A DNA stretch of 61,743 nucleotides, filler included, from Hausera hauseri (lineage: Eukaryota): the NCBI GenBank assembly GCA_046269625.1. It is 11 parts of 11 records of this genome, joined end to end, with 100 filler letters (N's around TTAATTAATTAA, not from the genome) between each part and the next. Parts side by side here need not be neighbours in the genome. Positions count along the whole stretch, not along the records: positions 40,688 to 48,819 come from JBJURY010757652.1; 10 more parts are not named here. One strand, 5' to 3'. Shown here in pieces: positions 6,772 to 60,720 of this stretch. The translations under genes were made by a program, and so were the position numbers. The notes beneath the pieces are model-generated. The model was not told the origin of the DNA. It worked only from the letters and a program-made list of their open reading frames with translations, and did no database searches. Every line of letters starts with the position of its first letter. Position 1 is the first letter of the stretch.

Positions 6772-6871
6772 NNNNNNNNNNNNNNNNNNNNNNNNNNNNN
6801 NNNNNNNNNNNNNNNTTAATTAATTAANNNNNNNNNNNNNNNNNNNNNNNNNNNNNNNNNNNNNNNNNNNN
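6772..6871. other. Artificial contig spacer
   Basis: N44-TTAATTAATTAA-N44. Confidence 0.98.
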
Positions 6872-8458: not shown

Positions 8459-8479
8459 ATTACCACCATCTACCAACAT

Positions 8480-17494: not shown

Positions 17495-17678
17495 TTATTC
17501 ACAAGTGGCACAGGCGTATTTATATCAAATTGGGAGTGGGAATAGTGAAACCACGACCAAGCCAATCGATATTATAAAAAATATTGATTTCCAAATTTTT
17601 CCCATATAAAAACATTAATTATTAAATATTGATTTCAAATCCTGGGGGGTCTCAAAATAGAAAATTTATATTGGCCTC

Positions 17679-21698: not shown

Positions 21699-21766
21699 TT
21701 CCTCACTGTATAGTATTGCAGCGCAAGATAGGGCATAGTGAACTCTACTAATTCGAGGTGCTACTA

Positions 21767-22891: not shown

Positions 22892-22988
22892 CGTCTATGA
22901 ATGCGATCGTCATATTCTCACATTTTTTCATTTTGGATAATTCTTTGTTATAGTATAAACGTAAAATACGCTTATCGAAAGCATTTAA

Positions 22989-25945: not shown

Positions 25946-26303
25946 TCAGTGTCGGTTTTCTGCCTCCCGTTAAAGAAAGTGGTGGTACATTTTTCCCTTG
26001 TCGTTGAGGTAATTCGGCATAGTTTGGTTCTAATGGTTTGGTTTCTTTGCATTGTACTTGTCCAGTATGGTCTGATCTCACTGATCTAAATTTATTATTT
26101 ATTGGTGATTTCTTAGTTTCATCAAGCTGATACTTTTAATTTCCTCCTTTAGGAGTTTAATATTCTCTTCTACTTCTTCCAGTTTCTTACTTATGAGGGT
26201 ATAACTTGCTGATGTTTGGACTCCTGTTAAATCAAGATAAATAGAAGTTGTTGATACAGGTCTTGACAAGTCTCCATCGGAGTTTCGTGGTGGTTTCTTC
26301 AGA

Positions 26304-29473: not shown

Positions 29474-30885
29474 CGGGTTGATTTCCCTCTTAATTTTATT
29501 TAATCGACACCAATACATAGGTATTTTCGGTTGATTCGAAAAAAAAATTGAATAAATTCTTTCTTTGACTACAACGAATATTTATAGTTAAATGAGTAAG
29601 AGCTATATTTGCAAAAATGACTAAGAGTTAAATAAATGTTTGACCAACTGTTAAATGTAATTTCCATCTTTATCAATGACGTTACATAGATGAAAATTAT
29701 TATTCATGGAGCATTATTTCCTCCGTTAATGTTGACAACTGTTTATTTAAGAAGTTTCTAAGTTCTTGTACCGAATCAAAGGACATTCTACATCGCTTCA
29801 TTTCTAAGTCGGGAAACACCTTACGATCTAGGACATTTATATCAGGAGAATACGGACTTTGCTTCACAATGCGACAATGTTTGCGTTCAAGAAACTTACG
29901 TGTCGCAGCTGACACATGTTGGGGAGCATTACCATGCATTAATATAAAATTTCCCCACAGTATATTTCTCCTTTGCACGACATCATATTTATTAAAAGCG
30001 GTGATAACTTTGTCAAGAAAGTTTATGTAACATTTAGAATTGACTGTTTCTCCGTGTTCTAAGACTTTCAAATGATACAATCCTCTAAAATTGACTGCAA
30101 CAAAGCAGTGAAATTTTGTGCCAACAGCTTTTCTTTTTGACATTTCAGTCCTGTCACTATAATGTGGGACCCAAGACTTCCTTGTGATGTGGTTTCCGAT
30201 CGGATAAGCATAAAAGGCTTTCTCGTCCGTAACTACCAGATACCATGTAATATTTCTGTTGTGTTGGAAAACGTCTAAGAGATCCTGACAACAAGTGATT
30301 CATTGCTGTTTCTGTTCCTTATTTATTTTGTGAGAAATCCATTTTTCTGAAATGCATGACCAATTAAGATCTTCTGTAATGATTCTTAACACCATTGCCT
30401 AGGACAATCCTAAACGATCTTCTACCTCTCATGTAGTCATTTTGTTATCATCAGAAAGGAAAGCTTCAATTTGACCGGCAAACAACTGTCTTTCTTCACA
30501 TTTCTTCCGCCCGCTTCCTTCCTTTCTATTGAAGTTTTCCCTGGAATTGTCTTTAAATTCTTTACAAATTTGCTGAACTCTTCGCAACTTTATGACATTT
30601 TCACCCCTTGTGGTTATGATAACGTTATGAAAGTCTGTACCCTTGTAATTATTTCTTCTTAGGGTTTCAATAACAACATAGATTTCGTTACTTGAAGGTT
30701 TCAAACTTTCAATTAAAATCAGATAAAATTTCAATATAAAAGCAAAGCAAACAAACCTTTAGGATTTCTTGAAACGATAATTCAAATTTTTCGACATCAC
30801 TACGTGATATTTGATTTATTAAAATAAAACATTTATACTTATGTATTTTTGTCGACTAAATAAAATTAAGACTGAAATCAACCCG
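29474..30885 (-). mobile_element. Full-length decayed mariner (DD34D spacing) with TIRs and TA flanks
   Basis: TA|CGGGTTGATTTC...GAAATCAACCCG|TA; LVVTDEK, LMHGNAPQH, PYSPDINVLD with 34 residues between second and third catalytic positions. Confidence 0.9.
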
Positions 30886-30909: not shown

Positions 30910-31741
30910 AACTGAGCTGTTATCGTACCAGAAACTTGCAGATTGATTCAAATACTGTCTACCAAATCATTCAACGACTTAAGTTGTGAGGTTTATTGTC
31001 ACATAAACCTCATAAAACAGGGTCGAAAACAAATGTTAAAGATTCGAGCAAAACGTGAGGTTGTTCGGGAAGCGTCGAAAGCTCCATTTAAAAGTTCCAG
31101 CAAGTTTGCCGAAATAGTTCAAACATACTTCCAGAAAAAGTTGCCCTCAGAACTATCCGAAAAGTACTCAACCAAGCTGGACTACGAGGATGCACAACCC
31201 GAAAGAAGCCCTTTATTTCAAAAATCAACAAAGCCAAGAGACTAGCTCTCGCAAAGAAGCACATAAGCAAACCTCAGAGCTTTTGGAATAGTATTTTGTG
31301 GTCTGACGAAACAAAACTTGTTTTGTTCAGACTGGCAAAAATATCTGGAGAACAGCAAATCAAGCAGTGCTTCCAAAACACCTCATTCCAACTGTCAAAT
31401 ATGGAGGAGGGAACGTCATGGTTTGGAGGTCGATGGCTTCCAATGGTGTCGGTAAAATGGAAATTTTTTATTTCAGAATGGATTTGGAGCATAACATCGC
31501 AATTCTGGGTAGAAATGAACAGAAATCTACTCAAAAGCTCCAGATAGGGAGAAAACATGTCTTCCAACAGGACAGCGACCCCAAACGCACCTCCAAAAAG
31601 GCACAGCTTTTCTTCAAAAACAAAAAGTTACGGTTCTTGGAATAGTCTTAGAAAAGTCGCCAGATTTAAACCCCATCGAACATTTATAGGGAATTTTAAA
31701 GAAAAGCGTATATGGTGTTCCTCCATCAAACCTGAATCAAC
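30910..31741 (+). mobile_element. Tc1 (DD34E-type) transposase remnant
   Basis: ILWSDETK, PTVKYGGGNVMVW, FQQDSDPKRTSK, SPDLNPIEHL. Confidence 0.9.
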
Positions 31742-31841: not shown

Positions 31842-32447
31842 AGTTGCAAAAACCAATGGAAGCTATTACGAATGTTGGAGCATTTGGAACTAGGGTGCAA
31901 GTAAAAGACTTAATTAAATGTGAGACAAAAGTCTTTAATCAAAAATTGGAGCAAGAATTTAGAATAGCCGATGAACTGGTGGCTGAAGCTATACTTGGTT
32001 GTGATGCACTAGCAAAGTTAAATGATATGTGTATGAACTTAGAAACCCAACAAATTCAACCATATCGAAAAACAAGGAATGAGAAAAAAAAATATAGTAT
32101 CAATTGAAGATGATATGTTAATAACAGCTAGAACAGAAATTGTACTCAAGGCATTAGTAGAAGGCCGAGACGAAGAAGACGTATATATCGAACCAAATAT
32201 GATTTTTATGGACAAGAATGAGCTATAGATAGCCCATACCATTGATAATATTCGAGAACACCAAGTGGTTGTTCGGATAGCTAACGTTTCAAATAAACCA
32301 AAATTATTGAGAAAAGGGACAAGAATTGCCTATGTATATTTGATAAAGGATATAGGTAACAATGCTACGGAAGCTATTATTTCCACTGTACAGGAATTAT
32401 CCGAATTTATGGAAAGACAATGACAAAAACCACGAACAGAAGCCTGG

Positions 32448-35015
32448 ATGCGATTAGAAAGTAAATCAATGAATAAATTGCAAAGTCATCTTAACAAAAA
32501 CAAAAATATAACAAAACTTGTCAAGACTCCTACCATATGGAATGATTATGACCTGTTCGGTAAAGATAGTACATTGACTGATGCGGAAAAAGAAGGTACA
32601 ATAAAAATATTACAACAATATAAAGATACCTTTGCCATCGATGAATATGATATGGGTATTATACCCGTCATCAAACACGAAATTAAACTGAAGACTGGAA
32701 TGGAAACTCCAATTAAAAAGAGGCCATATCGGCTTAACTATGACAAACGAGAAAAGGCTAAAAAAATAAAAGCCGAAATGAAACAGCATGACATAATTAG
32801 ACCAAGCAACTCACCATGGACAGCACCTATCGTGATGGTACAAAAGAAGGATGGGTCCATTAGAATGTGTGTGGATTATCGTGCTTTGAACGAAGTAACG
32901 GTAGACAATACCTACCCGTTACCGAGGATTGACGAAATATTAGACAAGCTGAAAGACAAAATGTTGTTTACCACGTTGGACTTACAAAAAGGTTTCTGGC
33001 AGATAGAAGTACAAGAAGAGGACAAACAGAAAACAGCCTTCGTGACGGCAGACGGACATTATGAATTCAACCGGATGGCATTCGGAATGAAGAACGCCCC
33101 GGCAACTTTTCAAACAGCTATGGATATAATTACCATGGATGCTCCACACATAATGTGTTATGTGGATGACGTTATAATTGCGTCAGCTGATTACAAACAA
33201 CACAAGGAACATCTTAAGGATATGTTGGAAAGATGTGCTCTCTTGGGAATTAAAATTAGTTTAAAGAAATGTTGTTTTGCCCGAACTAAAGTTGACTTTT
33301 TAGGCCATACAGTAAGTAGAGATGGAATTAGTCCACAAATTGGAAAAATCAACAAAATCCAAGACTTTCCAGTTCCAAAGACTGTTAGAGGAGTTCGAAA
33401 ATTTCTTGGCCTTACAGGCTATTATCGTAAATTTGTTAAGGACTATCAACAGATAGCTTCCCCTCTACATTCATTACTACAAGAGAATTCCAAGCTTGTT
33501 TGGACCCAAGAGTGTCAAAAAGCATACCAACAATTAAAGGACTGTTTATTAACTCCACCAATATTAGCGTACCCTAATATGTCAAAACCATACTTTCTAG
33601 CAACGGATGCAAGTAAAGTCGGAATTGGAGTAGTCCTGTCACAAAAAGATGATCAAGGACAAGAGCACCCCATATCATTTGGAGGAAGGAAGCTGAGGAA
33701 GCACGAAAAAAATTACTCTACAATTGAGAGGGAACTGCTTGCTATCGTCTACGCGTTAGAACAATATGGCCAGTATCTATCTGAAACAAAACCAATTATT
33801 GTTTATACTGACCATAAGCCGCTACAATGGTTAAAAAGCCATAAAAATCCAAATAGTCGCCTAATGAAATGGGCTATGTTACTTCAACCCTACGATTTGA
33901 AGTTTGAATATAAAGCTGGTAAAGCTAACGCAAATGCTGATTATATGTCAAGGATATCTGAGGATATAGATCAAAAAGATAAAGAGATAACAGATAAACC
34001 AGGGGCCATAGAAGCCATTTGGAGTATAACAGAGCAAGAAAAATCGCTACAACAAAGACAGCAGAATGATGAACAGGTAAAGCAAATTAAGGAATACCTT
34101 CAGAAGAAGATTGTGCCAAAGAATAATGATCTCTACACCCATTTGACAAAATTTGCTGAAAATTACCAGATAAAAGATCGTATATTATATTATAACCATA
34201 AAGGAAAATGTGTCGTCGTTGTTCCCCAAGAAGATATAAAACTTTTGTTAATACAATACCATGATGGTATGTTGGGCAGACATCACTCAAAGAAACGGAC
34301 TTTAGGTCGATTGAAAAGAAAATACTATTGGTATAAAATGTCCAAAGATGTAGAAGAATGGAGCAAAAGTTGCCCTATTTGTGCAACGCGAAGGAATACG
34401 GGCTCGAAAATTAAGGTTCCTTTGAAACCATTAGAATGCCCACCTGCCCCTATGGAGTTCTCAGCCATGGACATTCTAGGACCGTTGCCAATGACTATAA
34501 ATGGGAATAAGTACATGTTGGTTTTTGTTGATTTATTTTCCAGATGGCCCGTAGTAGTTCCGATACCAGACCAAAAAGCACAAACTATTGCACAAGCGTT
34601 TGTTGAAGAGATTGTATTCAATTATGGAGCACCTACTAAACTACTAACAGTTCAAGCTCCAAATTTTATAGGAGAAGTAATGGCGGAGATTTCGAAGATA
34701 TTCCATATATTACAGTTAAAAACTACCCCATATCATCCACAAACTAATGGAGCGGTCGAGCGATTTAATGGAACCTTAACCAACATGCTTGTAACTATGG
34801 TTAATGAACGACAGGATGACTGGGATGAATACATCAAACCATGTTTATTCGCTATAAGGAATACAATTCATCCTGCGACAAAAGAAACTCCGTTTTATTT
34901 AATGTATCTTAGAGATACGCACATGCCAGTTGATATAGATTTTAAAATGCCCCTGTCTCATCTAAAGGACATGGAGTATAAAGAATTATTAGAAGAAAAA
35001 CTTGGATATGTGTGA
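32448..35015 (+). CDS. pol: Gypsy Pol: reverse transcriptase, RNase H, integrase
   Basis: RMCVDYRALN, YVDD, TDASKVGIG, TDHKPL, MDILGPLP, YHPQTNGAVERFN; frame continues after a single TGA. Confidence 0.97.
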   Translation: MRLESKSMNKLQSHLNKNKNITKLVKTPTIWNDYDLFGKDSTLTDAEKEGTIKILQQYKDTFAIDEYDMGIIPVIKHEIKLKTGMETPIKKRPYRLNYDKREKAKKIKAEMKQHDIIRPSNSPWTAPIVMVQKKDGSIRMCVDYRALNEVTVDNTYPLPRIDEILDKLKDKMLFTTLDLQKGFWQIEVQEEDKQKTAFVTADGHYEFNRMAFGMKNAPATFQTAMDIITMDAPHIMCYVDDVIIASADYKQHKEHLKDMLERCALLGIKISLKKCCFARTKVDFLGHTVSRDGISPQIGKINKIQDFPVPKTVRGVRKFLGLTGYYRKFVKDYQQIASPLHSLLQENSKLVWTQECQKAYQQLKDCLLTPPILAYPNMSKPYFLATDASKVGIGVVLSQKDDQGQEHPISFGGRKLRKHEKNYSTIERELLAIVYALEQYGQYLSETKPIIVYTDHKPLQWLKSHKNPNSRLMKWAMLLQPYDLKFEYKAGKANANADYMSRISEDIDQKDKEITDKPGAIEAIWSITEQEKSLQQRQQNDEQVKQIKEYLQKKIVPKNNDLYTHLTKFAENYQIKDRILYYNHKGKCVVVVPQEDIKLLLIQYHDGMLGRHHSKKRTLGRLKRKYYWYKMSKDVEEWSKSCPICATRRNTGSKIKVPLKPLECPPAPMEFSAMDILGPLPMTINGNKYMLVFVDLFSRWPVVVPIPDQKAQTIAQAFVEEIVFNYGAPTKLLTVQAPNFIGEVMAEISKIFHILQLKTTPYHPQTNGAVERFNGTLTNMLVTMVNERQDDWDEYIKPCLFAIRNTIHPATKETPFYLMYLRDTHMPVDIDFKMPLSHLKDMEYKELLEEKLGYV

Positions 35016-35299
35016 AACCTAGCTTCACGACATATAAAAATATGCCAGAAAGAATATAAAAATAGATACGATGAGAAAACGAAGTCCCATGGTTTCAAAC
35101 CCGGAGATAAAGTCATGCTACATACGCCGTTAAATAAGAAAGGCAGAACACCAAAGTTGGACAGACCATATAAAGGTCCATATATGGTCCAAAAAGTAGA
35201 CGAAACGAATATCTATTTGAATAAAAACAAAAGGAACAAGATAGACCCGATAAAAGTCCACGTAAACAGGTGCAAGCCAGCAACCACAGAATCAAGGAT

Positions 35300-36093
35300 T
35301 AGAAGTGGAAATCCTAATTTATTATTAGTAACAACGTTTATGGTATTGAGTTTAGTGACTTGTGCATCAACTCAGTCTCTCGATGTCAAGTATAAAGCTG
35401 TTCAAATCGGAAAATACCCATGTGTAAAAATTACAGCCAACCGGAACTTAACAATAGATGAATATATACATATATTCATATCAAAATTACCTATTGTGGA
35501 AAAAGCGACACCAGAAAATTGTGATTTATACCACAATCATTCAGTACATATTTGTTGTGGACTTTCATTTGGAGAAACGTATAGAATTCAGTACGCAATT
35601 GGAAAAAGTGATCACGGTTATATAACATATTTCTCTTTCCCAGGTACTACCCATTACTTCCATCGACCATATTTTCTTATTTCATTTTATTCCAAGGTCA
35701 TGAAAAATGGACCTTGCATAACAGCAGAACCAGACGTACAAATCACGAAGTATGTAACATTCCAATATGAAATATTCGATGGCACTAACAACACATATTG
35801 TAAACCAAATTACCAAAATCCATATGTGTTGTCCAATTATTTTTAATAAATAGTATATGATATACTATTGGACCACGTACAATGGTTATACATGGTCAAA
35901 AACAGCAGATGGACCCGAGATAATAGTAAGATCCCCGGTAAAGATAACCCCTACTTCAACAAGAAAAGCAACTACCTTGGTGACACAATCAAGTATACTA
36001 ACTACATTACATAAAATGGTAACGAGTCCCACCATGGAACCTAAGAAGAGAATCAAAGAACTAGACATAATTATACAACCAACAAATTACTCA
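35300..36093 (+). pseudogene. Signal peptide, Cys-rich ectodomain repeats and Thr-rich stalk fused downstream of integrase
   Basis: LLLVTTFMVLSLVTCASTQ; PCVKIT..NCDLYHNHSVHICCGLSFGETYRIQY; TPTSTRKATTLVT. Confidence 0.65.
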
Positions 36094-40687: not shown

Positions 40688-40729
40688 AATTGTTATTCCA
40701 TATATAATCCAAAGTGAATTTTCACCTCC

Positions 40730-40918
40730 TTGGGAAAAGAATGTGCCATTTGTTTGAGTGAATGCTCAATGGACCAAATAGAATTAATTACAAGTAAGCA
40801 TCAATTCTGCCGTCAGTGCATAAAAGGATGGTTTGCACCTGAAACCTCTTGTCCAAAGTGCCGCACTAACATTAAATTATTCCAATATGGAAATAACTAT
40901 TATACTGTAAAGAATTGA
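40730..40918 (+). CDS. RING finger protein, C-terminal fragment
   Basis: CAIC..SKHQFCRQC..W..CPKCR (one ligand Cys reads Ser). Confidence 0.75.
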   Translation: MGKECAICLSECSMDQIELITSKHQFCRQCIKGWFAPETSCPKCRTNIKLFQYGNNYYTVKN

Positions 40919-41153
40919 TAAATAAAATTTTAGTATTAAAATTTTGTGATGTTATAGAGTATATTGTATTTTAGCTGAAATGCAAAAGGTCAAAAAACTG
41001 TAATTCCAAACACCTAGACAGTATGAATATGTCAGACCAGTACAATCTAATACAGTACAATATATATTACATTATCAGAATAGACAATTCGGACCAGCGT
41101 TATTTATTAAAAGACAAATAAGTTACTCCAAGGCTATAGTATTAGATAACTCT

Positions 41154-42197
41154 ATGAGAGATACACAAAACAGAAAGATATCGTTTTTAAAATACCGAAA
41201 TGCGCCTATTCCAGAAGAACTAGCACAAGCATATGTTAAAACCGGATTATACAGAACTACAACAGGACAAATTAAATGCATTTATTGCCAAGGAAAATTC
41301 CAATATAAACAAACGAAAGATCGACAAAATGAAATACATAAGAAATCACATGCTACTTGTCCTTATTTATTAAATCTCGATATCAGTAATATACCGTTTA
41401 TAGATACTTTTGTTAAAAGACCTGATTCAGATAAGGATACGAATTATGACACAACAATGTCAGTAAAAATAATTTACTCAACGGATAATACAGTGAAAGA
41501 AAATGTATATTGGATTTCAAACACAGTGCAAAAGAGAAAATTAACCTTCAATGGAAAAAGAGAAATTGAATATCTAGCTGAACAAGGACTAATATTGATA
41601 TCTAAGGAAGAAAAACAGTATGTCAAATGCACTATATGCTTAAAAGAAACGTACTGGTTAGAAAACCCCGATCAACGATGTCCAAAAATATTACATACCA
41701 ACAAGTGCGAATATTCAGCAAACAGAACCTTCGATAATCACACCAAGAGACAATGCAGAATACAATTCAATATCGGAAAACTATATGAATGTTACCAAGA
41801 TAATTTAGCAGCTACATCAGTGATATCCAGACATCCTACCAAACGAGAAAATATTCTACAGTACATTAAATATCGGACAGAAACTCAGTTGGACTGGTCG
41901 CCAAATGTATTCGAACTATGTCAGAATCTAAATTTTATCTCCCCGGAGAAAGAAAGAAAACACGAACGAAATATTCTCAACAACCTTTATCTGCGTGGTC
42001 TAGAATGCGTGATTTGCTATGTGGATGTAGCACAAGTCATTTTCTTGCCTTGCGGTCATTTGAAAACATGCGAGAAGTGTTCAAATAGAACAGCGAATTG
42101 CCCAGTTTGTAAGAGTATTATAGAAAGACAAGTGACGTATTTTCAGTTTTCAGAAGAAAATAGTGAAATAACTCTGACAGATATGGGCCTTGATTAA
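41154..42197 (+). CDS. Inhibitor-of-apoptosis (IAP)-like protein: BIR, divergent BIR, RING
   Basis: BIR1 CIYC-x16-H-x6-C exactly; BIR2 LAEQG..CTIC..H..C; IAP-type RING CVIC..VIFLPCGHLKTCEKC..CPVC. Confidence 0.9.
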   Translation: MRDTQNRKISFLKYRNAPIPEELAQAYVKTGLYRTTTGQIKCIYCQGKFQYKQTKDRQNEIHKKSHATCPYLLNLDISNIPFIDTFVKRPDSDKDTNYDTTMSVKIIYSTDNTVKENVYWISNTVQKRKLTFNGKREIEYLAEQGLILISKEEKQYVKCTICLKETYWLENPDQRCPKILHTNKCEYSANRTFDNHTKRQCRIQFNIGKLYECYQDNLAATSVISRHPTKRENILQYIKYRTETQLDWSPNVFELCQNLNFISPEKERKHERNILNNLYLRGLECVICYVDVAQVIFLPCGHLKTCEKCSNRTANCPVCKSIIERQVTYFQFSEENSEITLTDMGLD

Positions 42198-42337
42198 TAA
42201 CCAATATAAATTTAATTGAATAAATGTTATTTAGTTCATATGAATTTGTTGTGATAAAATTGAATAAATTTATTGTAGAATTACCGGTTATCAACAGTAT
42301 GACTCTAATCAACCTTAGTGAGTAAACAGTTCAAGTA

Positions 42338-42787
42338 ATGAAAATAAAGAATCAACCACCTAAATTAGGATATCAATGGTACAGATTGTATAATAGCTCT
42401 GTACTCAACAAGATAACCGAATTGGGATACTCGAAATATTTGGCAATGATTGCTATTAAAACTAATGAGAAAGCAGAATACGAAGCATCACCAAAAATGA
42501 TTACCTATATATACCAAGTGCAATTAATGGATAACAATTACTATCAAGGAATTTAATATTTGATTTCAACATTAAAAGAAAAAGAGAAAAAAATAAAAGA
42601 AAGATGCATAGACCTTAGCCGTGCAGTTTGGATTTGTGTAAGTTGTAGAAAAAGTCAAGCCAATATATTTTACCTACCATGTGGACATATTATTCATGTA
42701 AGATTTATGTACCTAAAGGTTCCATGTTATCAAAATGTGCTATATGTGAATTGTCCATAGACGAAGTGTGTACTATATACATATAAT
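42338..42787 (+). pseudogene. UBA-like, coiled-coil and IAP-type RING (IAP C-terminal half without BIR)
   Basis: KITELGYSKYLAMIAI (UBA-like); CVSC..IFYLPCGH..CAIC with a stop and a frameshift. Confidence 0.65.
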
Positions 42788-42790
42788 AAA

Positions 42791-45420
42791 ATGGATAATA
42801 ATCTAGTCTTCCTTAATAACAATGACGCAGGGACACCAGTACAACACTCGATCCGAGGATGACTGGCACAGGGTCAATCAACAGCAATTAATGAGATTGC
42901 TTTAGATGAAGGAAATATTAGCCCTACTAAAAGTTCGGATACGTTGAGCACAACATCCGCCCCAGGAACACTAACTGATATTGATTCATTACAATTGTCT
43001 CCTGCTGCGATACAACATCAATGGGTAAGAGGAGTTAATGGTCGACGAAGGCCATCCCGAGAGCAATATCGTAATGCATTTAACTCACGACACTTGACGC
43101 AGAGAATAACTAACCAGGAATTAGAATGCCGAACACGTTATGAAGTATATAATATAAATGTAAATGATCTCAGAATAAGACAGAATCGAACGTATGACAG
43201 TATACAACAACTAATTGAAGAAATACAAGATATACCCCGACAAGGAGGAGGAGTTGCAATAGAAACAGATGTTATAAATAATGGTATAAGATTGGACGAA
43301 GTCGAATGAAAAATCACCCAAACAGAGCAAAAAGTGAATAATAATAGTATGGGTTTAAACAAATTGGGTGCGAAAACTGGTCAACTTGCACAAGAGGTTA
43401 GCATCTATTCTAGACAAATGCGTGATATTCGACAGCAAACTATTGAACATATAGCTGCATTATATAGGAATAGAGAACAGATAGATAATAACGAAAGACA
43501 AGTAAGGCAAAGGATAAACTATATGCAAAATCAAGTAACAATTATAGTAAATGAACAGGACTAAATTCAAGAAGGAAATAACTGTACTAGAAACCAAATA
43601 GAAACGTTGCCGCGAGATATAGATCGATTGAATGAACGTCTTGAGCAAGTAAGGACAGAGGAAATAATAGCCCAACGTCAGGAAGAAGTACGCACACCCG
43701 AATTCTCAGTAGAGGTAGGTTCAATGTCTTGTGAAACCTCCGATATCAATAGCAGCAACATGGAGCCACAAGGAGATAATCGAGGGCCAATGGCTCATTT
43801 AAACGGATATAACTGCGACCCTAACAATAATAACGCGGCCTACGATTTACCAAATTACAACGAAAGGCGAAGAGAAGAGAAATATCAAACACTTCCTCGT
43901 CTTCAACCATATGAAGGACGCATATCGGACTTGGAATATTTCCTGGACTAATATGAATCTCTGGCCACAGCTATGCATTGGAATGATGCCAAGAAAATAT
44001 CACTTCTATTAGTGCATGTGAATAAGGATTTAAGGATGGCAATAACGCGTCTACCTCCACGAGTAAACGAAACTTGGTTGCAACACAGAAAAAGGATTTT
44101 ACAAAATCAGCAGGTCAATATATAAGAGAAACGATATCTAAAATTTCAAAATTGCAAACAGAAACCAAACGAATAAGTGTTGACTTATATTAATAGATTT
44201 AAAACAGCAATGAGTAGATATTTTAGCCATAACGCAAACACCTTTGGTGCCATGATTATGAAACAATTTGTACTTGGACTTTTACCACCCTTAAGAGAAG
44301 GAGTTAAGTTCCATACTCTTAATAACATTAACGAATTGATAGACTATACTAGAAAAATGGCAACACGGATAGATGAGATACCCTTATGGACTGATCAAAC
44401 GCAAATAGCAGCAGTGGCTACAACATCATTATTAGTTAGACCAGATGTACCAAATCGTAGTAATTCACCTTGGAGAAATTCTTCAAGAAGTCAAAGTCCT
44501 AATCGTCAAGGTACCAATACCCCACAGCGAAGTAATACTCCAGAGAGAGGAAGCTTTAACCAGTCATCCAGAAATTACAATCAAAGAGACACACAATACC
44601 AGCAAAGTAGGGGAAATTACAATGATCGACAGCGAAACGATAAAACACGAGGTGATTCAAGAGACAAAAATGACAACAGAAGTCGATTCCCTAGTACAAA
44701 AAGATATAGCAACGACCAAAACTTCGGGCGTTACGATTATAGAAACCCATTCTATAGACGAGATGGTAATTGAACACGATACCCAAACAACCGTTAAGAA
44801 GAATCAAAATCTAATTATTCTAACGACAGGCGAAGTGAAAGTCGTGAAAGGTTTAGAAGAGATGATAGTCGAGAAAGATATAATAATTTTAATAGAAACG
44901 ACAGTAGAGAAAGGAATAACCGGCGAGGTGATAGTAGAGAAAGAAATAGCTTTAGAAATGACAATAGAAGTGGGTATAATAATTCAAGATCAGGAAACTA
45001 TAACAGAAGACGTGATTATACTTCATCTCGACGAGAATCGGATAGATATAATAGAAATCCTATTCCATACCCTTCAAGAGATCAAAACCGAACTCCTTCC
45101 CCCAGATCAAGTAGCGATAATAATAGGTATACTCGATCACCGGACTACAGTTCCAGACGAAATGAATCATCGCCAAATAGAACTACCTCCACATTCAGGT
45201 ATAATAGGAATGTGACACCAGAATATTCCAAAAATTTCAATAAAAGGAAAGTGGATTCAACAACGCCATCTTACAGCAATCCTTAAAAAGAAAAAGGAAA
45301 TTTATCAGATAATAAGAAAAGTAATAACGACGAACGAAATGTCTCACCTCGTCGTTAGGTAACTTTTAATGAACAAACTAAATCAGCCTTTACGGGCTTA
45401 GTAATAGCAAAACCCATAAT
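42791..45420 (+). pseudogene. gag: Gag: coiled coil, retrotransposon capsid domain, long Arg/Ser/Asn/Asp-rich tail
   Basis: One frame from ATG 42791 with about ten premature stops; PYEGRISDLEYFLD*YESLATAMHWND, CKQKPNE*VLTYINRF, QFVLGLLPPLR. Confidence 0.8.
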
Positions 45421-45559
45421 GGAACACCATCAAGTTACATCCAAACCACCAACCAATAGTTCTATACTGGAAAAACCCTTCATAACTAGAAAGCATTTGG
45501 ATCAGGCAGAACGGAAAGTACCAGATATTCAAAGTAATACACTCCCATACATGTTATGG

Positions 45560-46830
45560 CCAGAAACTAAAGAAATCAAAAATTTACTTTTGACCTTTGT
45601 AGCAATAGATAAAATTAATGAAGAAGCACAGGAACCCAAAATTAACCGAATAAGAATAGACAACATTGAAGATGATTTGATAATTGAATTAAAGAATGTA
45701 TATCTGGAAAAAGAAAAACACTATGAAAATCTTAGACAATTATTCTGTGGAAAACTCATAGTCGGAATAGAATTACCATGGCTATTTAAAGAAATACAAT
45801 TAAAAGAAACTGATATCTTTGGTACATTCAGTGTAGACCAGAATTTTAACTTACCAGATGATTAATGGGAAAGAGAAAGTACATTACCACAACAATTAAA
45901 TAATTTACGAAAGAGTACAAAACCAAACTTAGTCGTCAAGGATCTCCATATTTCATTTTTCCAAGCAACCCTTCGTACAGGGACGACGGACGTCCCGAAC
46001 ATAAAATAACATTTAATACTACCCTAATTCCAGAGGCAGTACTAGAGCGCATGGACATGGATATTGTTCAGAAATGGGATAAACTGTTTGTAGACAAGAA
46101 AACTAACCGAATAGAGTTCACGGACATCACCGAACAAGGACCAACTTGCATGGAAGGGATTGATAAAGTCTACCTTAAAAGGACTGATATTCGAATCAGA
46201 AGAAATGACCAGCCATGTGCTATAATTACCAATCAGGGAAAAGCTCGATTGAAAATTAATGATAAGATGGTAATAGTTTCTAAGGAAACTAAGATACTCC
46301 CTAATTACCCCTATGAAGGAGACTATCAGATTCAACCTTTAGGTGATTGCCCGATATACTTAATACAATTATTTAAGGAAACACCCGTGTTAATTGTGTA
46401 CGAACCCGTGAAGCAGGACAAAGAGATAGTTCTCACTGGTAGATGTATAACTAAAGGAAACCAAAAGGGACTTGCTCAGGTTACAGCTAAAAACTTAGAA
46501 GGAGAAATAATACTTAATAATCATGTATATCCAAATATACCAGATACTACAAAGTATACTGAATAGAGTCGACGGTCTAATCTCCAACGCCAAGAGTCGG
46601 TAAGTGAATTTATGAATAAGTATTTGCCAGGAAATATAATCATCGGACGATGTTTACGAGAGCTATTAAACACTTTGAAAATAAATTACGTAAATTTAAC
46701 CGCTATTTATGATTTGGAGCAAACTAACAAAAAATACAAATGTTTAGGCTTATATAATGGTCATAACTTAGAAATTATGGCACAAAGATGTCAATACCAA
46801 TACCTAAAGACAGTACGAGTGGAATACAAT
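45560..46830 (+). pseudogene. Two degenerate DEDDh (REX4/ISG20-like) exonuclease domains
   Basis: FVAIDK..NRIRIDNIEDDLI..QLFCGKLIVGIEL and LAQVTAKNLEGEIILNNHVYP..YLPGNIIIGRCLRELLNTL..IYDL. Confidence 0.55.
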
Positions 46831-47427
46831 GTGGCATGGATAATAGAAAGCCAAAATACGTTACGAATAGCCTTTCCAGCAATAGACGAAATGGAGAAAA
46901 CTGAAGAAGCTAGAGCAATTTCAGGAATTGAACCAATCGCTCAAAGACATCCGGATATGGATTCCGACGAATATTCACACGAGTCTGAGAGAATTAGACT
47001 AACCGGGGAATGGATAGACCAGTATGATGATAGATTAGTTGCACCAATTACCCAACCGAAGGTTCTGCCCCAACGACCAACATAATTCGAAGATATCCGA
47101 GATTCAATACAACCCAGTATATCTAAGAAGGAACCTCAGATAATGGACGATGAAACATATGAAATCTTAGATGCTGATATTATATCTATATCAGATACGT
47201 TCCATTATTTCGGAAATACATTATCACCAGTTGAAAACCCAAAGATTATTCCGGAAGTGAATATTCCACCAGGATCTATAACATACGGCGAACGCTCGGA
47301 GTTAGTAATAGAAAAAATTACAGCTAAATTACAAATGACTGATCCAGCACCCAATGAGGTATGGGATGCTTTATGACAATATGAGACACAGCCATTAATC
47401 AATCGAATAGAATGCGAACCATTACTT

Positions 47428-48486
47428 ATGCCATTGACAATGGATGATATATTTTGTTTCTTAGCTGCAAGAAAATTATTAAAGACGCTAGGAAGAGAGT
47501 TAAGACGAAAACACCAAAGAAAACCACCGTATATAATAAATATAGAAATTAAAACCAATAAACGCGAACAAATAATTAAAGTAACAACGGGAATGTTTAC
47601 TAAATTCACAGACCTTCGAAGAAAGGTACTAGACGAATTAGATCTCGAAACTAATATAATAGCAAAAACTAATTTTTATGGCAGATTAGCCGTTGACAAT
47701 GATCATGTTGTGGATTATGGACTACTTACTGGAAAGATCTACCAGATTACTATGGAAATAGTCAATAAGAAAAGGGGAGGAAGATCGAGGAAATGTGATT
47801 TTAACCCAGTAAGTGACGATGAAGAAAAACCTGAAGAGGAAGAAAAACCAGGAAGGCAAAGAAAGAGAAGACATTTGTCACGAAAACGTAGGGAACAACA
47901 GGAAACAGTAGAAGATATATTATATGACAAATTCCAACGATTTACCATTAGTGACGATGAAAACGAACCAACACAAAATCCAATTTCAGGAACATCAAAC
48001 CAGAGTGACGTAAATGTACCAAAAGTGACATTGACAACTCATGAACTTCTAGAACAGTTAATTAAGAAAGCAAACCCAAAACAACTTAAGAAAATACCAG
48101 CAATTACAACAATTACACTACTTTCCATAATAGAAACTGCTGGAAACTTTTCGTCACAAATCACAAGGTTATTACACAAATACGAAATGAAAGGAGGTTT
48201 AAATAAAGCATTGACACGGTTATTAAAGGACTGTGATCAGAATCGATTATTGATGGCTTTTGGATTCATAGTGGTTAGTTTTAAAAAACAAACAGCGATC
48301 GATGCTAAATTACATCACACGATAAGGGAATTAGCCTATCATATGGATGAGCTAACAAAAGATTGGGTAACAAAACATGGTGGTTGGGATGAAATCCTCA
48401 AGAAATTCGATCCCACCACATTAATATATCCTAAGAATACCAATATCTCTTGGTGGTACAAATCATTCACTTGCTACTATACTTAA
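47428..48486 (+). CDS. BH3-like motif, ubiquitin-like domain, basic/acidic linker, Bcl-2-family domain
   Basis: LKTLGREL; INIEIKT..FYGRLAVDNDHVVDYGL..KKRGG (47536-47781); BH1-like DQNRLLMAFGF; BH2 DWVTKHGGWDEILKKF. Confidence 0.8.
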   Translation: MPLTMDDIFCFLAARKLLKTLGRELRRKHQRKPPYIINIEIKTNKREQIIKVTTGMFTKFTDLRRKVLDELDLETNIIAKTNFYGRLAVDNDHVVDYGLLTGKIYQITMEIVNKKRGGRSRKCDFNPVSDDEEKPEEEEKPGRQRKRRHLSRKRREQQETVEDILYDKFQRFTISDDENEPTQNPISGTSNQSDVNVPKVTLTTHELLEQLIKKANPKQLKKIPAITTITLLSIIETAGNFSSQITRLLHKYEMKGGLNKALTRLLKDCDQNRLLMAFGFIVVSFKKQTAIDAKLHHTIRELAYHMDELTKDWVTKHGGWDEILKKFDPTTLIYPKNTNISWWYKSFTCYYT

Positions 48487-48819
48487 TAGCTGTAAGCAGC
48501 TTGAATACGACAAAAGCATAAGAAGATTATGATTGTTCCCGACCAGAAATAACAGACACACTTTCATTAATGAATATAGGTAAGTGCCAGAACGCGAATC
48601 CGATATCAGTGAAAAAGAGGGTCCTTACGATTATAATTTGTATCAGAGAATCAGTTATGAACAAGTGCAAGTAAAGGAATGCCAGGTTAATAAAGTAATA
48701 TTCGCTTACAACTGTGGTCGTAATTTATGGAATTCAGTGATTATTCCATTAGGATTACCTAAACCTGTAACAATAACGGCCGAAAATTGTAGGAAAGCCA
48801 CAGATTGGATTCACATAGA
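48471..48819 (+). pseudogene. env: Signal peptide and N-terminus of a chuvirus-glycoprotein-like envelope protein (cut by contig end)
   Basis: LLLYLIAVSSLNTTKA*EDYDCSRPEITDTLSLMNIGKC / YNLYQRISYEQVQVKECQVNKVIFAYNCG..ITAENC. Confidence 0.65.
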
Positions 48820-50171: not shown

Positions 50172-50910
50172 TTATATTAATTGATATCGAGTCCATGAAG
50201 CAGATGAATTTGCAAATCTCAGTTGCAATGACTGATCTGTATAAATGTTCAACATGCAGCTATTGGTACTTATTTGCATGAAGGCACTTTTACAATATGG
50301 CTGCCTGTTCAAACACCTAAAAATTATAACTTAACTTTGTTAAGCACGAATTATTAGCTTACTTAAAGGTACAATACATTGGAGACACGTCAGAATAAGT
50401 CTCCAATAAGCCTTCTTCAGCGTTATTATTCACAACCATCGATGATGGTGACAATTTTATCATTTGTGATACAACCTGGTTCAATACACAAATGACGTCT
50501 ACAGAATGTGGTGAAGTACACGACCAATCACATAAACCAGATGGAGACACATATATGATGCAGTCTTGTGGTATGGAAACGCCGTTCAGTTCACCTGAAG
50601 GCCAGTACGTAGTCTGTGTAAAAATTGACCCATCAAAATTCAGCCATCCATTTTTATCATAGTTTCGTTCATTGACCAAATCTGATATGCCTACATAAAA
50701 ACGGTTAGCCATCCAATTCAGCTGTTTTATGTTATCCAAATCTGGACCATTGGGTAATTGACCATTCATAGTTTCACAATATCGCGCAGCATCCCATGTA
50801 GTCATTGATGTTACTGAATTTCTTTTATAATATGTTTTACCATTAATAATCGATGTAGCTGCATTGGATAACCCAACTAAACAGAGAAACCAAAAGAAAG
50901 TATCAACCAT
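50172..50910 (-). CDS. Secreted C-type lectin + PAN/apple domain protein, two exons (50910-50363, 50316-50172)
   Basis: Signal peptide MVDTFFWFLCLVGLSNA; CTLD (YC..GQL, FYVGISD, W..GELN, QDC, DWSC, VIC); 46-nt GT-AG intron; exon 2 CLNRQPYCKSAF..SCML. Confidence 0.8.
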
Positions 50911-51619
50911 ATTTGAAACTGAAATGAGAAGGCTAAAAAACTGACGTTTACATTTTTGAACAACTGTTTTATTCTGCGTTTGACAAAAACAAATGGCGTT
51001 GATGCTCATTTGTTGTTCTCTCTTTTTTCTATGCAACTATCCAAGATATTTGAAAATAATGAGAACTATTTGATGGGTTTATTTTACATACACAACAAAT
51101 GAATAACAATCAAACTAATAAACTCAGTTGGACTGCGGTAATAAAGGAGTTGAAAATTGGTTGATGAATTTTGATTAGTTTTGTTTTTACTTTTGTGTGC
51201 CGTATGGAATTGATAAAAATATTTTTTTATTAAAGTCGCCATTGTTCCACAATTTACTTATGACTAGATATAACTTGTGGATTTTCCTCCAGGATAAGGA
51301 AAATCTCGTAAACATTGTAAACGGTTTTGACTTTACCATAATTAACACAAACCTCAGGGTGCGATGCCTGACCACAGATGGTCAGGTCAATCGGCACAAT
51401 AAAAATTTATAACTGGATGTCAGAAATGGTACAATTATTGAATGAAAAGTAATCATGGATATATCTAAGGCCTGTATCGAAAAGTATTGACGTTGCATAA
51501 AGTACATTTTTGTGTGAAAAGGCGTTTGATATATAATGATTGGGTTGTATGAAGAAACACGTGAGTGCTATGAGCAACTGTGCGTAGGTGTTTTGAAATA
51601 TCTTTAGTATTTTAATAGC

Positions 51620-55332: not shown

Positions 55333-56800
55333 TTGGTAGAGACACCGGAGAGAAACATGACAAAAAAAATGGTGTCAGCACCTCCCCCTACAGAAGAAAG
55401 GATGGTGACTGTACAGCAGCACCAACTCGAGCACATGATAGCGGAACATACAAGCATGAAAAAGGCACACGAGGAGATGAAAGCCATGTGGGAACAACTA
55501 CAAGCACAACAATCTACGGTCACTGGAGCCCGACCTCCACCAAAATCAACTGCAGGAAAAGACGATCCCAATCGAAGAGCACTGGATAAGATTGACAACA
55601 TGGTGAGCAAGATTGATTTAAACAGCAAACACCAGAACGTTTGCACTTTTGTGTAGTCCTTTACAGGAACTGACTCGAAATCCTTTAAGTCTTGGATTTC
55701 ACAAATTGAGAAATACTCACACTTGGTGAAGGCAACACAGGAGGAGAAAAAAGAGCTGGCTACACTACATCAGACGGATTAGCCAACGATTTTATCAAAC
55801 GGAGATTCAGAACACATCCAGATGAAGACTGGGAAGCTTTCAAGAAGACATTAGTGAACAGTTATGCTGAGGTTACAGATATGCAATACGCGATTGCTGC
55901 TCTCAGAACAATCCGTCAGGAAAGAGATGCACTGGTCCAGTTGTACAGTGATAGAATGCTTAATATGGCCGAGGATGCATACATGGGGCAAGACATTATG
56001 GCAGAAGATATCGGCAAGTTACTGATACCTATATTCATTGATGGTCTTAGGAACACACCAACGAAAATAAAATTGATGAAAGATGACCCAAAGACGATAG
56101 CAATTGCGATTCAGACAGCGGTCGATGAAGACAATTTCAACAAGAGAGTCAATATGAGACTAGGCAGAAAGACGCCAAACGATTGACAGGAAGAACACAT
56201 GGACGTAGATCACTTCCAAACAAAATGGCGATGATGACAGCACAGAGAACATGATGAACGTTGGGACGACAGATATTACAGACATAATGCAGTTCACAAA
56301 GTAGAAAGGGATACCAAATGTGGCAAAGATGGACACATTGCCAGAAATTCTAGAAGCAAACAGGAGACAACCAACAACCCCCAGACATAATGCTGCAAGT
56401 TCAAAACAGTGTTACAAATGTGGCAAAGTGGGTCACTTTGCAAAATTTTGCTGAACAGGAGACGGAAGTCATCACAGGCAACAGGAAAACACATATTCTG
56501 TTCCGTAAGCTCCGACCCGAACAGGAAGTTAGCAGGAGCCACACAGGAAATACGGACACAGAGGAGCAAGATATGAAAGTTACCAACATTTCAGTACAAT
56601 AGTCAGGGAATCAAACATTCTAACACAGCAAAAGAGAGATACCATGCACGAACATCTAGAATTATACCGAATATGATGAGGTCTATGAGAAGGTAGGAGA
56701 ATCGAAAATTCAAGAAGAAACCACAGAATCAGAACACGAATACACGAAATGATAAACAGAAAGAAATGAGATTCGCTCAGAACAAGTAACATGACAAACT
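55333..56800 (+). pseudogene. gag: Gag with capsid domain and CCHC knuckle
   Basis: FKSWISQIEKY, LRTIRQ..FIDGLRN, CYKCGKVGHFAKFC. Confidence 0.85.
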
Positions 56801-57056
56801 AGTAGGAAGTCGCAACAGGCAACACACTGAAAACCAAAGTCAGAAGCAGGGCTACAAACACGAACCAATGGAAATAGATGCATCTCATAGAAAGCAGCAA
56901 ACACAGAATTTCCCATTCCCACCCAGCCCCAAGAAGCAGAAAGAAGTTAACACCCACATCCCCAAACCCAGGAAAATCAACGTCCCTTTCCCAGAAGAGA
57001 AGTCACGATAACACACCAGCGGTAGTAGAGGCGAAAGAGACCACAGACTATAGGAA

Positions 57057-60000
57057 TCATAGAGGCGAGATTAACAGCCTTGAAGATCCAAGCTCTTGTT
57101 TAATATATTTTGAGAAGGTCAGAGTCAGATGCTTAGTGGATACAGGAGCCCAAGTCAGTATTTTGAGTGAGAGAGTCTTCAGGATGCTGAAAAAACAGAA
57201 TAAACTAACTCGGAATAACACGGACTTAAGATCTATTACCGGAAGTACACTACAAGTTTTGGGTAAAGCAACATTAGAATTTCGAATCGGCGAGATAAGT
57301 GTGAAACATACGTTCATGATTGTGAGAAACATGTGTAGAAGTGCTATACTGGGAAGAGACTTTTTGCTTCAACACCATGCCAGAATATACTTCGATCTGA
57401 AGAAAATACGAATACGTGATACATACATTGAATTACATGATGATACGCATGTAGCATCCATTATACGAGTCAAACAAAAAGCTTTGTTGAGACCAAATTC
57501 AGTAAATATTATAGTTTCAGCTATGAAGAAAAATGACTATTGGCATATAGGAGACAATGTAACAATCAGCCCATAGAAGATACTGAGATAATTGAAGAAC
57601 CAGGTCTACAAGCAGTATCGGGAATAGTGAAGTTAAACAAAAAGAGAGAGTTCCCAATAATGATAATGAATTTTACCGGAAAAACAATAAAGTTAAAGAA
57701 AGGCTGTATTGTGGCGAAAGCAGACAAGAAAAATGGAGGTAGCTGTGAAACAATAACTAACAGCCAGAGTAATATGCGCCGAACAACAACGGTTGAGACA
57801 CGAAACGACAACATCACAACAGACACAGATCCAAAACGGAGTCATAGAGACCAAGTGCTGCAGGAAATCAAGAGCGGGTTATGGAGAGTGAAGTCGACGA
57901 ATATAGTGGCGGAAGTAAAGCAAACGGAAGATAGACTTACAAAACTACTTGAAACATTGAAAGTCGATAGACAACATAAGGAGAGAGTCGAAAAATTTAT
58001 AACCCAGCATGCAGATGTTTTTGCAATCACGGATATGGAGCTTGGGCGCACGACCACTGTCACGATGGAGATCAATACAGGCGATCATACACCCATTAGC
58101 CTCAAACCTTACAGAACTCCATTAGGCAATCGGGAGATAGTGGAAAAAGCGGTCGAAGAAATGCTTCAAGCAGGTATCATTGAGCGTACGAGATCTGAAT
58201 GGTCGTTTCCAGTTGTCATCGTGACTAAGAAAGATGGATCACACAGATTTTGTGTTGATTACAGACAACTGAACGCCGTTACAACCAACGTCAGTTACCC
58301 CATGCCGCTCATAGACGATATACTAGGACTTTTAGATGGCACGACTTACTTTACCACCCTCGATGCCAGATCTGGATTTTGGGCTATACCAATGTCACCG
58401 GATGCCAAGCAGAAAAGTACCTTCTGTACCCATACTGGTTCATATGCATGGAATGTGATGCCCTTCGGTTTGAAAGGCTCACCCGCGACCTACATGTCGT
58501 TAATGAACATTGTACTGGAAGGCCTACAAAGCTTCGCGTTGGCATATATAGATGATGTGCTATTTTTCACGAAAGGAGATATTGAACACCACTTAGCACA
58601 CGTTGAGAAAGTCTTTGATCGAATGAGGTAGCATAAAGTAAAACTAAAACTTAGTAAATGCGAGTTCCTCAAAGAAGAAACAAAATATCTGGGATTCATT
58701 ATTACCAGAGAAGGAATCAAGCCAGATAAAGAAAAAGTAGCAGCAATCAGACAGATGCCACCACCACGTACAACGAGAGAAGTTCGAGGATTTTTGGGCA
58801 CTTGCGGATACTACCGTCGATTCATAAAAGATTTCTCAAGAATAGCTGAACCACTAGTGGCCCTGACAAGAAAATTCGCCAGATTTCGATGGGAAGAAGA
58901 ATGCCAAAGAGCGTTTGACCAGCTGAAGCAAAGTTTGACAGTTGTCCCATTATTAGCATATCCCGATACCAGCAAAGGATATATTTTATATACGGACGCT
59001 TCCGATTACGCCATAGGCGCCGTTCTTACCCAAGAAGACGGTGAAGAAATTGTCAATGGCAAGCCGAGAAAGAAAGAAAAACCGATATACTTTCTCTCAC
59101 ACCGATTAAGCAAATCCCAGAAGAAGTGGCCCGTACTAGAGAAAGAAGCATATGCTATCCATTATGCTCTACAAAAACTCAACTTCTATTTGCATAACAG
59201 TCAGTTTGTAGTCCGCACTGACCATATGCCTCTGAAAGCGATGTTAAGATCCGACGTCCAGAACAAGAGAATGCAACAATGGATACTTAACCCTCAAGGC
59301 TATAATATTTCTATAGACTACATCAGAGGACCACAGAATACAGTGGCCGACATGTTATCAAGAATATCAGAATCAATACCAGCAAAATAACCAACTGAAG
59401 CAACAACAGACGAAGCAACTCCAGATATCGATGACCATACATTACAGATTTCAGTAATCAATTCTGATCAGAAACATCTATATAAAGACGATAGCAACAC
59501 TGACTCAACAAATGAAGAACATACTGAAACAATGTTCGCTATGAGAACCTAGCAAAATAAAGACGACACGTTAAAAAGAATCATTGACGATCTGAAGTCA
59601 GGGAAACCTGACAAGTTACAAAAGTGGCGGAAGTTTACACTTGAAAACGGTGAACTATACAGAATTGGTGGAACCGAAAAACACAATTTCAAAGAATGTG
59701 TCCCGAAACAGCTGAAAGAAGAGGTCATTAAGCAATATCACGATGAACTAGGTCATCTAGGCAGAGACCGTACCACCGAAATGATTGCTCGTAAATATTA
59801 TTGGGCTAACATGAACAAGGTGATAAACGAATATGTGAAACTCTGAAAAATGCAAACTACGGAATATGGAAGCTTTGCGGCATCCACTTCAGGACCCTGA
59901 TTATGCCTCTTTCCCATTTGAAAAGATTAGTTTGGACTTATCGGGACCTCACCCAGTTACAGCATCAGGAAACAGTTACATCTTGCACATTGTAGATATT

Positions 60001-60720
60001 TATAGCTGTTGGCACGAACTACATGCCCTACCAGACAGATCAGCAAACGGCATTATCGAAGTTCTAATGGAGGAAGTAATCCCATGCTATGGTTGTCCGA
60101 AAATTCTGATAACCGATAACGGCAGGGAATTTGTCAATAAGGCAATGACAGACACCCTTCGAGAGTTGAACATCAAACACATCACAACTGCTACATACAA
60201 CCCGGGAGCGAACGGATTTAATGAACGTCAGCATAGCACGCTATGTGATGTTATCACCAAGTACGTAAATAACCAACCGAAAGACTGGGACATGTACTTA
60301 AAGCAGGCAGCCATGGTAGTTAGAATCAAGGAGAATGGGAGTCGACGATATGCACCATATGAAATGCTATTCGGAAGAGAACCCATTTAGCATTGGACAA
60401 CTTGCTGAAACCAAGACCAAAGTACAATGGTGAAGAGTTCCACAAATATGAGACTTCATGAGATATCCGTCAACATCAGTAGGAACTTAAGGCACGCACT
60501 TAAACAGAGAAAAGATCGCATTGAACCAAACACAACGAATCAAGAATTTGCAATAGGAGATAAACTATACTACAAGAATCACCATCGGTCCTCAAAAATG
60601 GATAATAGATGGATCCCAGGATACCAGATAGTTGAACAAAAAGTTCCAGTTACCTATGTCATCAAAAACCAGTATACGGGTCAATCCACCACTACAACCA
60701 CCAGTCAACTTAGGAAAGAT
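57057..60720 (+). pseudogene. pol: Pol: protease, RT, RNase H, integrase
   Basis: LVDTGAQVS, RFCVDYRQLN, YIDD, YTDASDYAIG, SLDLSGP, ITDNGREF, YNPGANGFNER. Confidence 0.95.

Follow-up and report, generated by a model that had tools for sequence, protein, structure and literature searches.

We found that a single contig in the genome assembly of Hausera hauseri (GCA_046269625.1) very probably represents a Burro-like Gag-Env element, a relative of the planarian Burro retroelements in which genes for RING and inhibitor-of-apoptosis (IAP) proteins precede a Gag-to-Env polyprotein with a probable Bcl-2-like domain embedded in it. The contig, JBJURY010757652.1, belongs to a window, by which we mean the whole stretch of 61,743 nucleotides analysed, filler included, in which 11 unrelated contigs are joined by N spacers; it fills exactly the interval 40688-48819 between two spacers (8,132 nt; GC 0.347). 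It comprises the 5′ half of the element, its end falling inside the envelope protein (Env), and we consider it quite likely to be the decayed remnant of a multicopy Ty3/gypsy element that is a diverged relative of Burro, with Pol likely lying beyond the contig end. Three protein searches and one full-library search yielded four relatives, all of them ENA proteins (P0001-P0004). On the A-rich + strand of the contig (A 0.40, T 0.25), three RING-bearing accessory genes are followed by the Gag-to-Env polyprotein, all of the cargo being intronless, on one strand and of a common A-rich bias (positions are those of the window):

40718..40915, + strand: accessory gene 1, RING finger (RING at 40739-40864; Pfam zf-RING_2)
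40980..42197, + strand: accessory gene 2, IAP-like BIR-BIR-RING (Pfam BIR in two stretches, and RING)
about 41163-41375, + strand: BIR1 of accessory gene 2 (canonical C-x2-C-x16-H-x6-C)
about 41522-41714, + strand: BIR2 of accessory gene 2 (atypical spacing)
42002-42152, + strand: IAP-type RING of accessory gene 2 (Pfam)
42299..42790, + strand: accessory gene 3, helical (possibly UBA-like) region and IAP-type RING (weak match)
42822..44500, + strand: Gag, with N-terminal region, coiled coil (about 43301-43690) and capsid (about 43853-44395; Retrotrans_gag)
44501..45355, + strand: low-complexity Gag tail rich in Arg, Ser, Asn and Asp (alignment)
45464..45895, + strand: putative exonuclease-like copy 1, DEDDh-like by eye (88 of 143 residues identical to P0003)
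46189..46389, + strand: conserved beta-rich domain, putatively cupin/oxygenase-like by eye (40 of 67 identical to P0001)
46414..46740, + strand: putative exonuclease-like copy 2 (71 of 108 identical to P0001)
47518..47781, + strand: putative ubiquitin-like domain, by eye (61 of 83 identical to P0001)
48016..48423, + strand: Bcl-2-like helical domain (98 of 136 identical to P0001; motifs)
48424..48819, + strand: signal/anchor segment and N-terminal 100 residues of a gB-type (class III) Env (Pfam PF24664, Monjiviricetes_fusion)

The RING, BIR, capsid and gB-type fusion protein assignments are supported by hidden Markov model (HMM) profiles (Pfam, run on 10 translated pieces of the contig). The order in which the initial annotation had placed RING, BIR-BIR-RING, RING, Gag and glycoprotein on one contig and strand is confirmed, with E values of 7.5e-8 for the first RING, 1.1e-6 and 1.4e-12 for the BIR and RING of the IAP-like gene, 0.0035 for the third RING, 4.3e-5 for Gag and 5.1e-5 for the glycoprotein. 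The UBA, ubiquitin-like and exonuclease-like domains that it had also named gave no significant profile match. Its Bcl-2 call fared between these, for the profile check that bears out BIR and capsid returns Bcl-2 weakly (PDB E 0.0094; Pfam E 0.18).

Among the accessory genes, the IAP-like gene is the most informative: one stop near its start is followed by 397 open codons (ORF 41004-42197), and it is 47-48% identical to the intact IAP relatives P0002 (47%) and P0005. A profile of the window IAP and P0002 gave 62 PDB matches with E values of 0.01 or lower, the best being cIAP1 (E 5.6e-15), with XIAP, NAIP and DIAP1 among the further matches. A motif check found the BIR2 spacing C-x2-C-x18-H-x3-C in both the window IAP and P0002. 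When BIR1 is aligned to BIR3 of cIAP1, the W, DD and W at the cIAP1 places are not matched; these groove residues serve binding of the IAP-binding motif of caspase or Smac. The flanking accessory genes are less complete: the RING of the first has no preceding in-frame ATG, its 5′ part being missing or broken, and the third is broken by one stop and one frameshift, with a Pfam match to UBA_7 (E 0.19) that is not significant.

Retrotrans_gag (PF03732) is present in both the window and P0003, the Pfam scores for Gag being E 4.3e-5 (at the cut-off) and 6.6e-5 for this family and E 0.0012 for PNMA, and the capsid shares 123 of 178 residues with P0003. The latter (1,339 aa) spans Gag to exonuclease-like copy 2, and P0001 (1,963 aa; 5.9 kb coding on a 7,573-nt contig) is one open frame from the R/S-rich tail to a complete Env, colinear with 44546-48817 at 48-72% identity. 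Judged from these two intact relatives, Gag, the Bcl-2-like domain and Env belong to one frame. The initial annotation had Gag continuing into the glycoprotein, which is wrong for this copy, where the 1,998 codons between the start of Gag and the end of the contig contain 15 stops and 4 frameshifts, i.e., 19 breaks; the continuity exists only in P0001 and P0003. This copy is thus dead, whereas intact relatives exist. An alternative genetic code is ruled out, as all three stop types co-occur with frameshifts.

For the region 48016..48423, the best PDB match is Bcl-2 A1 (E 0.0094), and 7 of 14 rows are named Bcl-2, most of them one redundant protein; one more row is 3qbr, which we take to be a schistosome Bcl-2 protein, and the remaining six are unrelated. 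The BH2-like motif W-x3-HGGW is kept and ends about 18 residues before a hydrophobic segment. We place good confidence in a Bcl-2 fold for this region. Its BH1-like motif reads DQNR in both the window and P0001, with Asn at the position of the glycine that, in the canonical NWGR, serves BH3 binding; innate signalling is instead the target of some poxviral Bcl-2-fold proteins. The Env segment that follows is broken and cut by the contig end, so that its PF24664 match rests on the 63 residues left in the window; it is 71-72% identical to P0001 residues 1340-1462, and the full Env of P0001 matches the same family at E 1.9e-63, P0001 having hydrophobic segments at 1336-1359 (signal) and 1904-1935 (transmembrane, TM). 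A K-A site after the first hydrophobic segment is matched in P0004. This more distant relative (3,036 aa) has an Env identical to that of P0001 at 186 of 624 residues (30%), with 14 cysteines versus 14 in P0001, in frame with protease, reverse transcriptase (RT), RNase H and integrase. Between its Env and RT lie three aspartic-protease-like stretches and C2H2 zinc fingers. Elsewhere in the window, positions 32097-35846 (+) encode an RT-RNase H-integrase that shares 44% identity with the P0004 Pol (1,071 residues compared) and runs on in frame into a hydrophobic segment and a cysteine-containing protein, making it a candidate Pol end of a related element.

The regions between Gag and the Bcl-2-like domain are assigned more cautiously. 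Neither exonuclease-like copy matches a Pfam family, and PDB sequence searches with the nuclease regions came back blank or with unrelated proteins. The domain appears duplicated because the two regions resemble each other, five of nine pairings beating all 300 shuffles. In a fold search with a model of pLDDT 37, ISG20 ranked third (E 0.21) among about 43 rows, none significant, which also included SDN1, EXD2, ERI3 and RNase H-like folds; such rows would fit, without proving, the exonuclease reading. Foldseek gave no match at E 0.001 and VIA a best Z of 4.2, both on low-confidence models. A DEDDh exonuclease-like domain also occurs at about 3766-4110 in the first contig of the window, where 1-6771 (+) hold the 3′ part of another Gypsy element with RNase H, integrase, a signal-peptide-like segment and long accessory frames; its five PDB matches are all DEDD nucleases (best E 0.0019), a RING lies at about 5291-5390 (E 1.7e-6), and its strand shows the same kind of A-rich bias. 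A transitive route to the exonuclease call through this domain failed, as it is not significantly similar to either copy (the best pairing was equalled or beaten by 19 of 500 shuffles, the other five by 148-370 of 500). The cupin-like region at 46189..46389 has no Pfam match, and strands appear in its low-confidence predicted model. The ubiquitin-like region lacks a relevant Pfam profile match, and its similarity to P0004 (E 2.2 from the window, which is not significant, and E 0.017 from P0001) is slight; a basic stretch with di-glycine follows it at 47776-47781, the GG being present in both the window and P0001. Across the element, identity to the relatives is 73% for the ubiquitin-like domain, 72% for the Bcl-2-like domain, 69% for the capsid, 62-66% for the exonuclease-like regions and 52-61% for the BIRs and RING, versus 31-51% for the linkers. 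This excess of domain over linker identity points to a probable protein-level constraint on the cargo.

The family is abundant. At 80% likeness, 21,638 of 15.5 million contigs of run X1 and 2,600 of 9.55 million contigs of run X2 match the contig, mostly at 80-95%, with 30 of 30 bins covered and depth unbroken from IAP to Gag. In X1, summed depth is 2,773-8,538 over the IAP, 5,878-9,144 where IAP and Gag join, and 4,250-26,366 across Gag-Env, the single matching contigs listed having a depth of 4-35. Since diverged contigs in their thousands match the IAP and Gag-Env alike, the cargo is evidently multicopy and, by this measure, not made of single-copy host genes, an alternative that the initial annotation had raised against itself. 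The IAP relatives P0002 and P0005, which lie on two contigs, are identical except at 3 of 403 residues. P0005 (IAP) and P0003 (Gag) are each on a 6,828-nt contig, and IAP, spacer and Gag together need 5,856 nt, which is circumstantial evidence for IAP-Gag linkage in a second, younger subfamily.

Several observations weigh against the identification of the contig as a Burro relative with functional cargo. A motif search found no CCHC knuckle in the window Gag frame, P0001 or P0003. The MATH/TRAF and ankyrin features of Burro have no Pfam match in the contig or its relatives, the element being incomplete at both ends, and the likeness to Burro is one of described architecture, with no Burro sequence among the search returns. 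No Pol was detected in the contig, nor were long terminal repeats (LTRs), a primer-binding site or target-site duplications, the last three being features that the initial annotation had proposed to look for, the absence of LTRs following from the lack of any internal repeat and of any match to the rest of the window. P0001 ends about 30 residues past the Env TM segment, and P0004 has no detectable Bcl-2-like match, so that the linkage to Pol is known for this distant relative only. The 860-aa middle region matched P0001 and P0003 alone among 1.84 billion representatives. Support for Bcl-2 is weak, and the structure predictions, made from 2- and 4-row alignments, are of low confidence (pLDDT 33.3 and 37.0). 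Conservation of the di-glycine could reflect ancestry alone, and its distance from the fold is presumably greater by some residues than in ubiquitin. As to abundance, summed contig depth is not copy number, being uncalibrated and without a non-repeat or single-copy control; it is 195 over the first RING versus at least 2,773 elsewhere in X1, a run that may be the source sample (X2 contains only 0.05 of the words), and none of the contigs listed bridges IAP and Gag or spans the stretch.

The shallow first RING and the lack of a listed record that spans the stretch, together with the origin of the record as a short-read contig of a highly repeated family, are what a chimeric contig, or host IAP and Bcl-2 genes adjoining a Gag fragment by chance, would have in its favour. 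We regard this as very improbable, given the single strand, intronless structure and shared A-rich bias of the cargo, the union of the Bcl-2-like domain and Env in one frame in P0001, the excess of summed depth in the IAP bins over that of single contigs, and the contigs of equal length that carry the second IAP and Gag. Still less credible is that the IAP and ubiquitin-like/Bcl-2 frames are domesticated and host-selected within an otherwise dead copy. Their open runs of 397 and 369 codons invite such a reading, but the break rate of this copy predicts 3.9 breaks for the IAP gene (P = 0.10 for one or fewer), and random placement of breaks leaves an open run of at least 358 codons in 43% of trials. 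The long open runs are hence within what chance gives; moreover, a stop follows the ATG of the IAP, and no own start is seen for the Bcl-2 frame.

The preferred reading, a Burro-like element continuing into Pol, also competes with a non-autonomous or differently ordered one, with Gag, cargo and Env but no Pol of its own (other Gypsy families would mobilise it in trans) or with Pol encoded separately in another frame. The contig does lack Pol, P0001 does stop soon after the TM segment, and several other Gypsy Pol contigs are present in the window, including the one related to the P0004 Pol. We nevertheless hold this to be improbable: the contig is cut inside Env, making the absence of Pol uninformative, the 7,573-nt contig of P0001 may itself be cut or broken, and Env and Pol share one frame in P0004, in Burro and in the Gag-Env-Pol errantiviruses, as far as the available part of their description goes (PMC13524379). 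The initial annotation went further in proposing an enveloped, possibly infectious Gypsy-related element that blocks host cell death. Gag, an in-frame gB-type Env and multicopy IAP/RING cargo bear out its first part; infectivity does not fit a copy that is a decayed fragment. That the element is currently infectious, with an IAP that binds caspases and a Bcl-2 protein that blocks mitochondrial permeabilisation, seems quite unlikely to us, even though IAP copies that are intact and 99% identical exist, as does an unbroken Bcl-2-like/Env frame, the domains are conserved above the linkers and the RING is of the IAP type. Against it stand the 19 breaks of this copy, the Asn in BH1 and the BIR1 without cIAP1 groove residues, and an anchor that would be an ER-type signal segment (ER, endoplasmic reticulum). 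In the available part of PMC8532177, RNAi of BURRO1 left the smedwi-2 phenotype of planarians unchanged, an outcome that bears on apoptosis indirectly at most.

Returning to the Burro-like element with a continuing Pol, we posit that in active relatives a long mRNA would be translated into one Gag-to-Env(-Pol) polyprotein, the RING and IAP proteins being made separately. Gag, having no zinc knuckles, would bind and package RNA via its basic R/S-rich tail. Cleavage by host signal peptidase behind the hydrophobic segment would set the gB-type fusion protein free in the ER lumen, and the Bcl-2-like domain would keep that segment as a C-terminal membrane anchor, like cellular Bcl-2 proteins, probably at the ER. 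The di-glycine behind the ubiquitin-like domain may be a cleavage site for a ubiquitin-like protease of the host, although two kept residues are no proof of this. As E3 ligases, the RING proteins, the IAP among them, would target host defense or death proteins, so that the producing cell might stay alive, or its innate response stay low, while enveloped particles form. We lean slightly towards some anti-death or anti-defense role of the cargo; a direct block of both caspases and mitochondrial permeabilisation is unlikely. Given the DQNR at BH1 and the missing W/DD/W residues of BIR1, direct inhibition of caspases and Bax/Bak is no likelier than a role as E3 ligase or in innate signalling. More tentatively still, and with considerable doubt, these parts may be joined into a Burro-like enveloped lineage outside the dugesiid planarians, in which the R/S-rich tail replaces the knuckles, twin dead DEDDh nucleases serve as RNA shields, a ubiquitin-like protease and signal peptidase free a tail-anchored Bcl-2-fold protein, and the signal peptide of Env is at the same time the Bcl-2 anchor.

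Conservation extends to the IAP, the pair of ubiquitin-like and Bcl-2-like domains and the gB-type Env in frame, despite an Env identity of about 30% to the nearest Pol-bearing relative; cargo under apparent protein-level constraint in so distant a lineage argues that it is functional and old. The processing model, with the Env signal segment as Bcl-2 tail anchor, is testable, and if the host turns out not to be a planarian, the range of complex virus-like elements would be wider.

Beyond the element and the contigs already mentioned, the window contains an A-rich strand at 21699-26303 (-) with long frames (375, 384 and 253 aa), hydrophobic segments and no Pfam family, which may be accessory cargo of another large retroelement. 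At 17661-18296 (+), an RNase H fragment is fused in frame to an intronless piece of a leucine-rich-repeat host gene (LRR_14, E 3.3e-9), and at 50359-51036 (-) there is a frame without introns for a C-type lectin (Lectin_C, E 6.2e-5) whose N-terminus is signal-like. The intervals 14814-16535, 29700-30299, 31092-31547 and 55710-60390 hold fragments of piggyBac-like, mariner-like and Tc1-like transposases as well as an ordinary Gypsy element of the Gag-Pol type. Rfam has no match in the window, and CpG observed/expected is 0.75-1.08 across all 11 contigs. No relative of the element was found among the viral contigs or JGI metagenomes searched.

In comparison with known systems, the accessory IAP resembles cellular and baculoviral IAPs (cIAP1, XIAP, DIAP1) in its BIR-BIR-RING order and IAP-type RING, but differs in the BIR groove residues; likewise, the Bcl-2-like domain shares with Bcl-2 A1/Bfl-1 a BH2-like motif followed by a hydrophobic segment, but differs in the BH1 glycine and in being embedded in a polyprotein. 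For the exonuclease-like regions, the bdelloid LTR retrotransposons Juno and Vesta, which the available part of their description credits with a DEDDy domain in a separate ORF3 with intact catalytic residues (PMC5408684), provide a precedent of a DEDD exonuclease on LTR elements, whereas here two putative, apparently non-catalytic copies lie inside the Gag polyprotein.

The gB-type Env leads to the GAG-ENV-POL errantiviruses with HSV/gB-type Env, which the available part of PMC13524379 describes from Platyhelminthes, Bryozoa and Nematoda, with six from S. mediterranea (Smed_errantivirus_1-6). The contig shares with them a multicopy nature and the order of Gag then gB-type Env with no Pol between. 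By eye, and within the part of that source available, the P0001 ectodomain follows the Envs of the six S. mediterranea C1a errantiviruses in cysteine pattern and length, its distance from them resembles that among the six themselves (31-64% in the table of PMC13524379), and it is unlike the nematode, orthomyxovirus and rhabdovirus rows with which it was compared. The errantivirus elements, as far as described there, are intact, whereas the contig copy is decayed and cut before any Pol. Burro, Bcl, BIR and accessory are all absent as words from the main text of PMC13524379.

The closest parallel is Burro/GYPSM1 of planarians, which combines Gag, BIR, Ubi2/SUMO-like and BCL2-like domains with an Env in frame between BCL2 and protease, has an upstream accessory ORF and two to three CCHC knuckles in both Burro types, is known from decayed copies in Dugesia japonica, and has inspired a provirus hypothesis together with the idea of meddling with apoptosis and ubiquitination (PMC6431247). 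The initial annotation had suspected that Burro already carries such cargo, and correctly so; the novelty it implied falls away, as the combination of cargo and Env has been in print for Burro (2007-2019; PMC6431247). Other sources touch on Burro in passing: the available part of PMC8532177 reports BURRO1 as piRNA-silenced, with tissue-specific expression in planarians, those of PMC13238120 and PMC11410931 merely mention Burro, and no other paper on such an element was recognised in a literature search from titles and abstract openings. The Hausera element agrees with Burro in an N-terminal retrotrans_gag with coiled coil, BIR, an accessory ORF upstream of Gag, an apparently very high copy number and a putative ubiquitin-like domain before a probable Bcl-2-like domain that is followed directly in frame by Env. 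Burro exceeds 25 kb, with LTRs and with Pol in frame after Env, where the contig here is cut in Env. Unlike Burro, the contig family has no CCHC knuckles, a long R/S-rich tail standing in their place, because of which we call the element Burro-like and not Burro; also unlike Burro as described in PMC6431247, it has duplicated exonuclease-like regions, a cupin-like region and three RING-bearing accessory genes. What it adds to the published Burro is, accordingly, a Gag without knuckles, the duplication of a nuclease-like domain, the three RING genes and a hypothesis on polyprotein processing.

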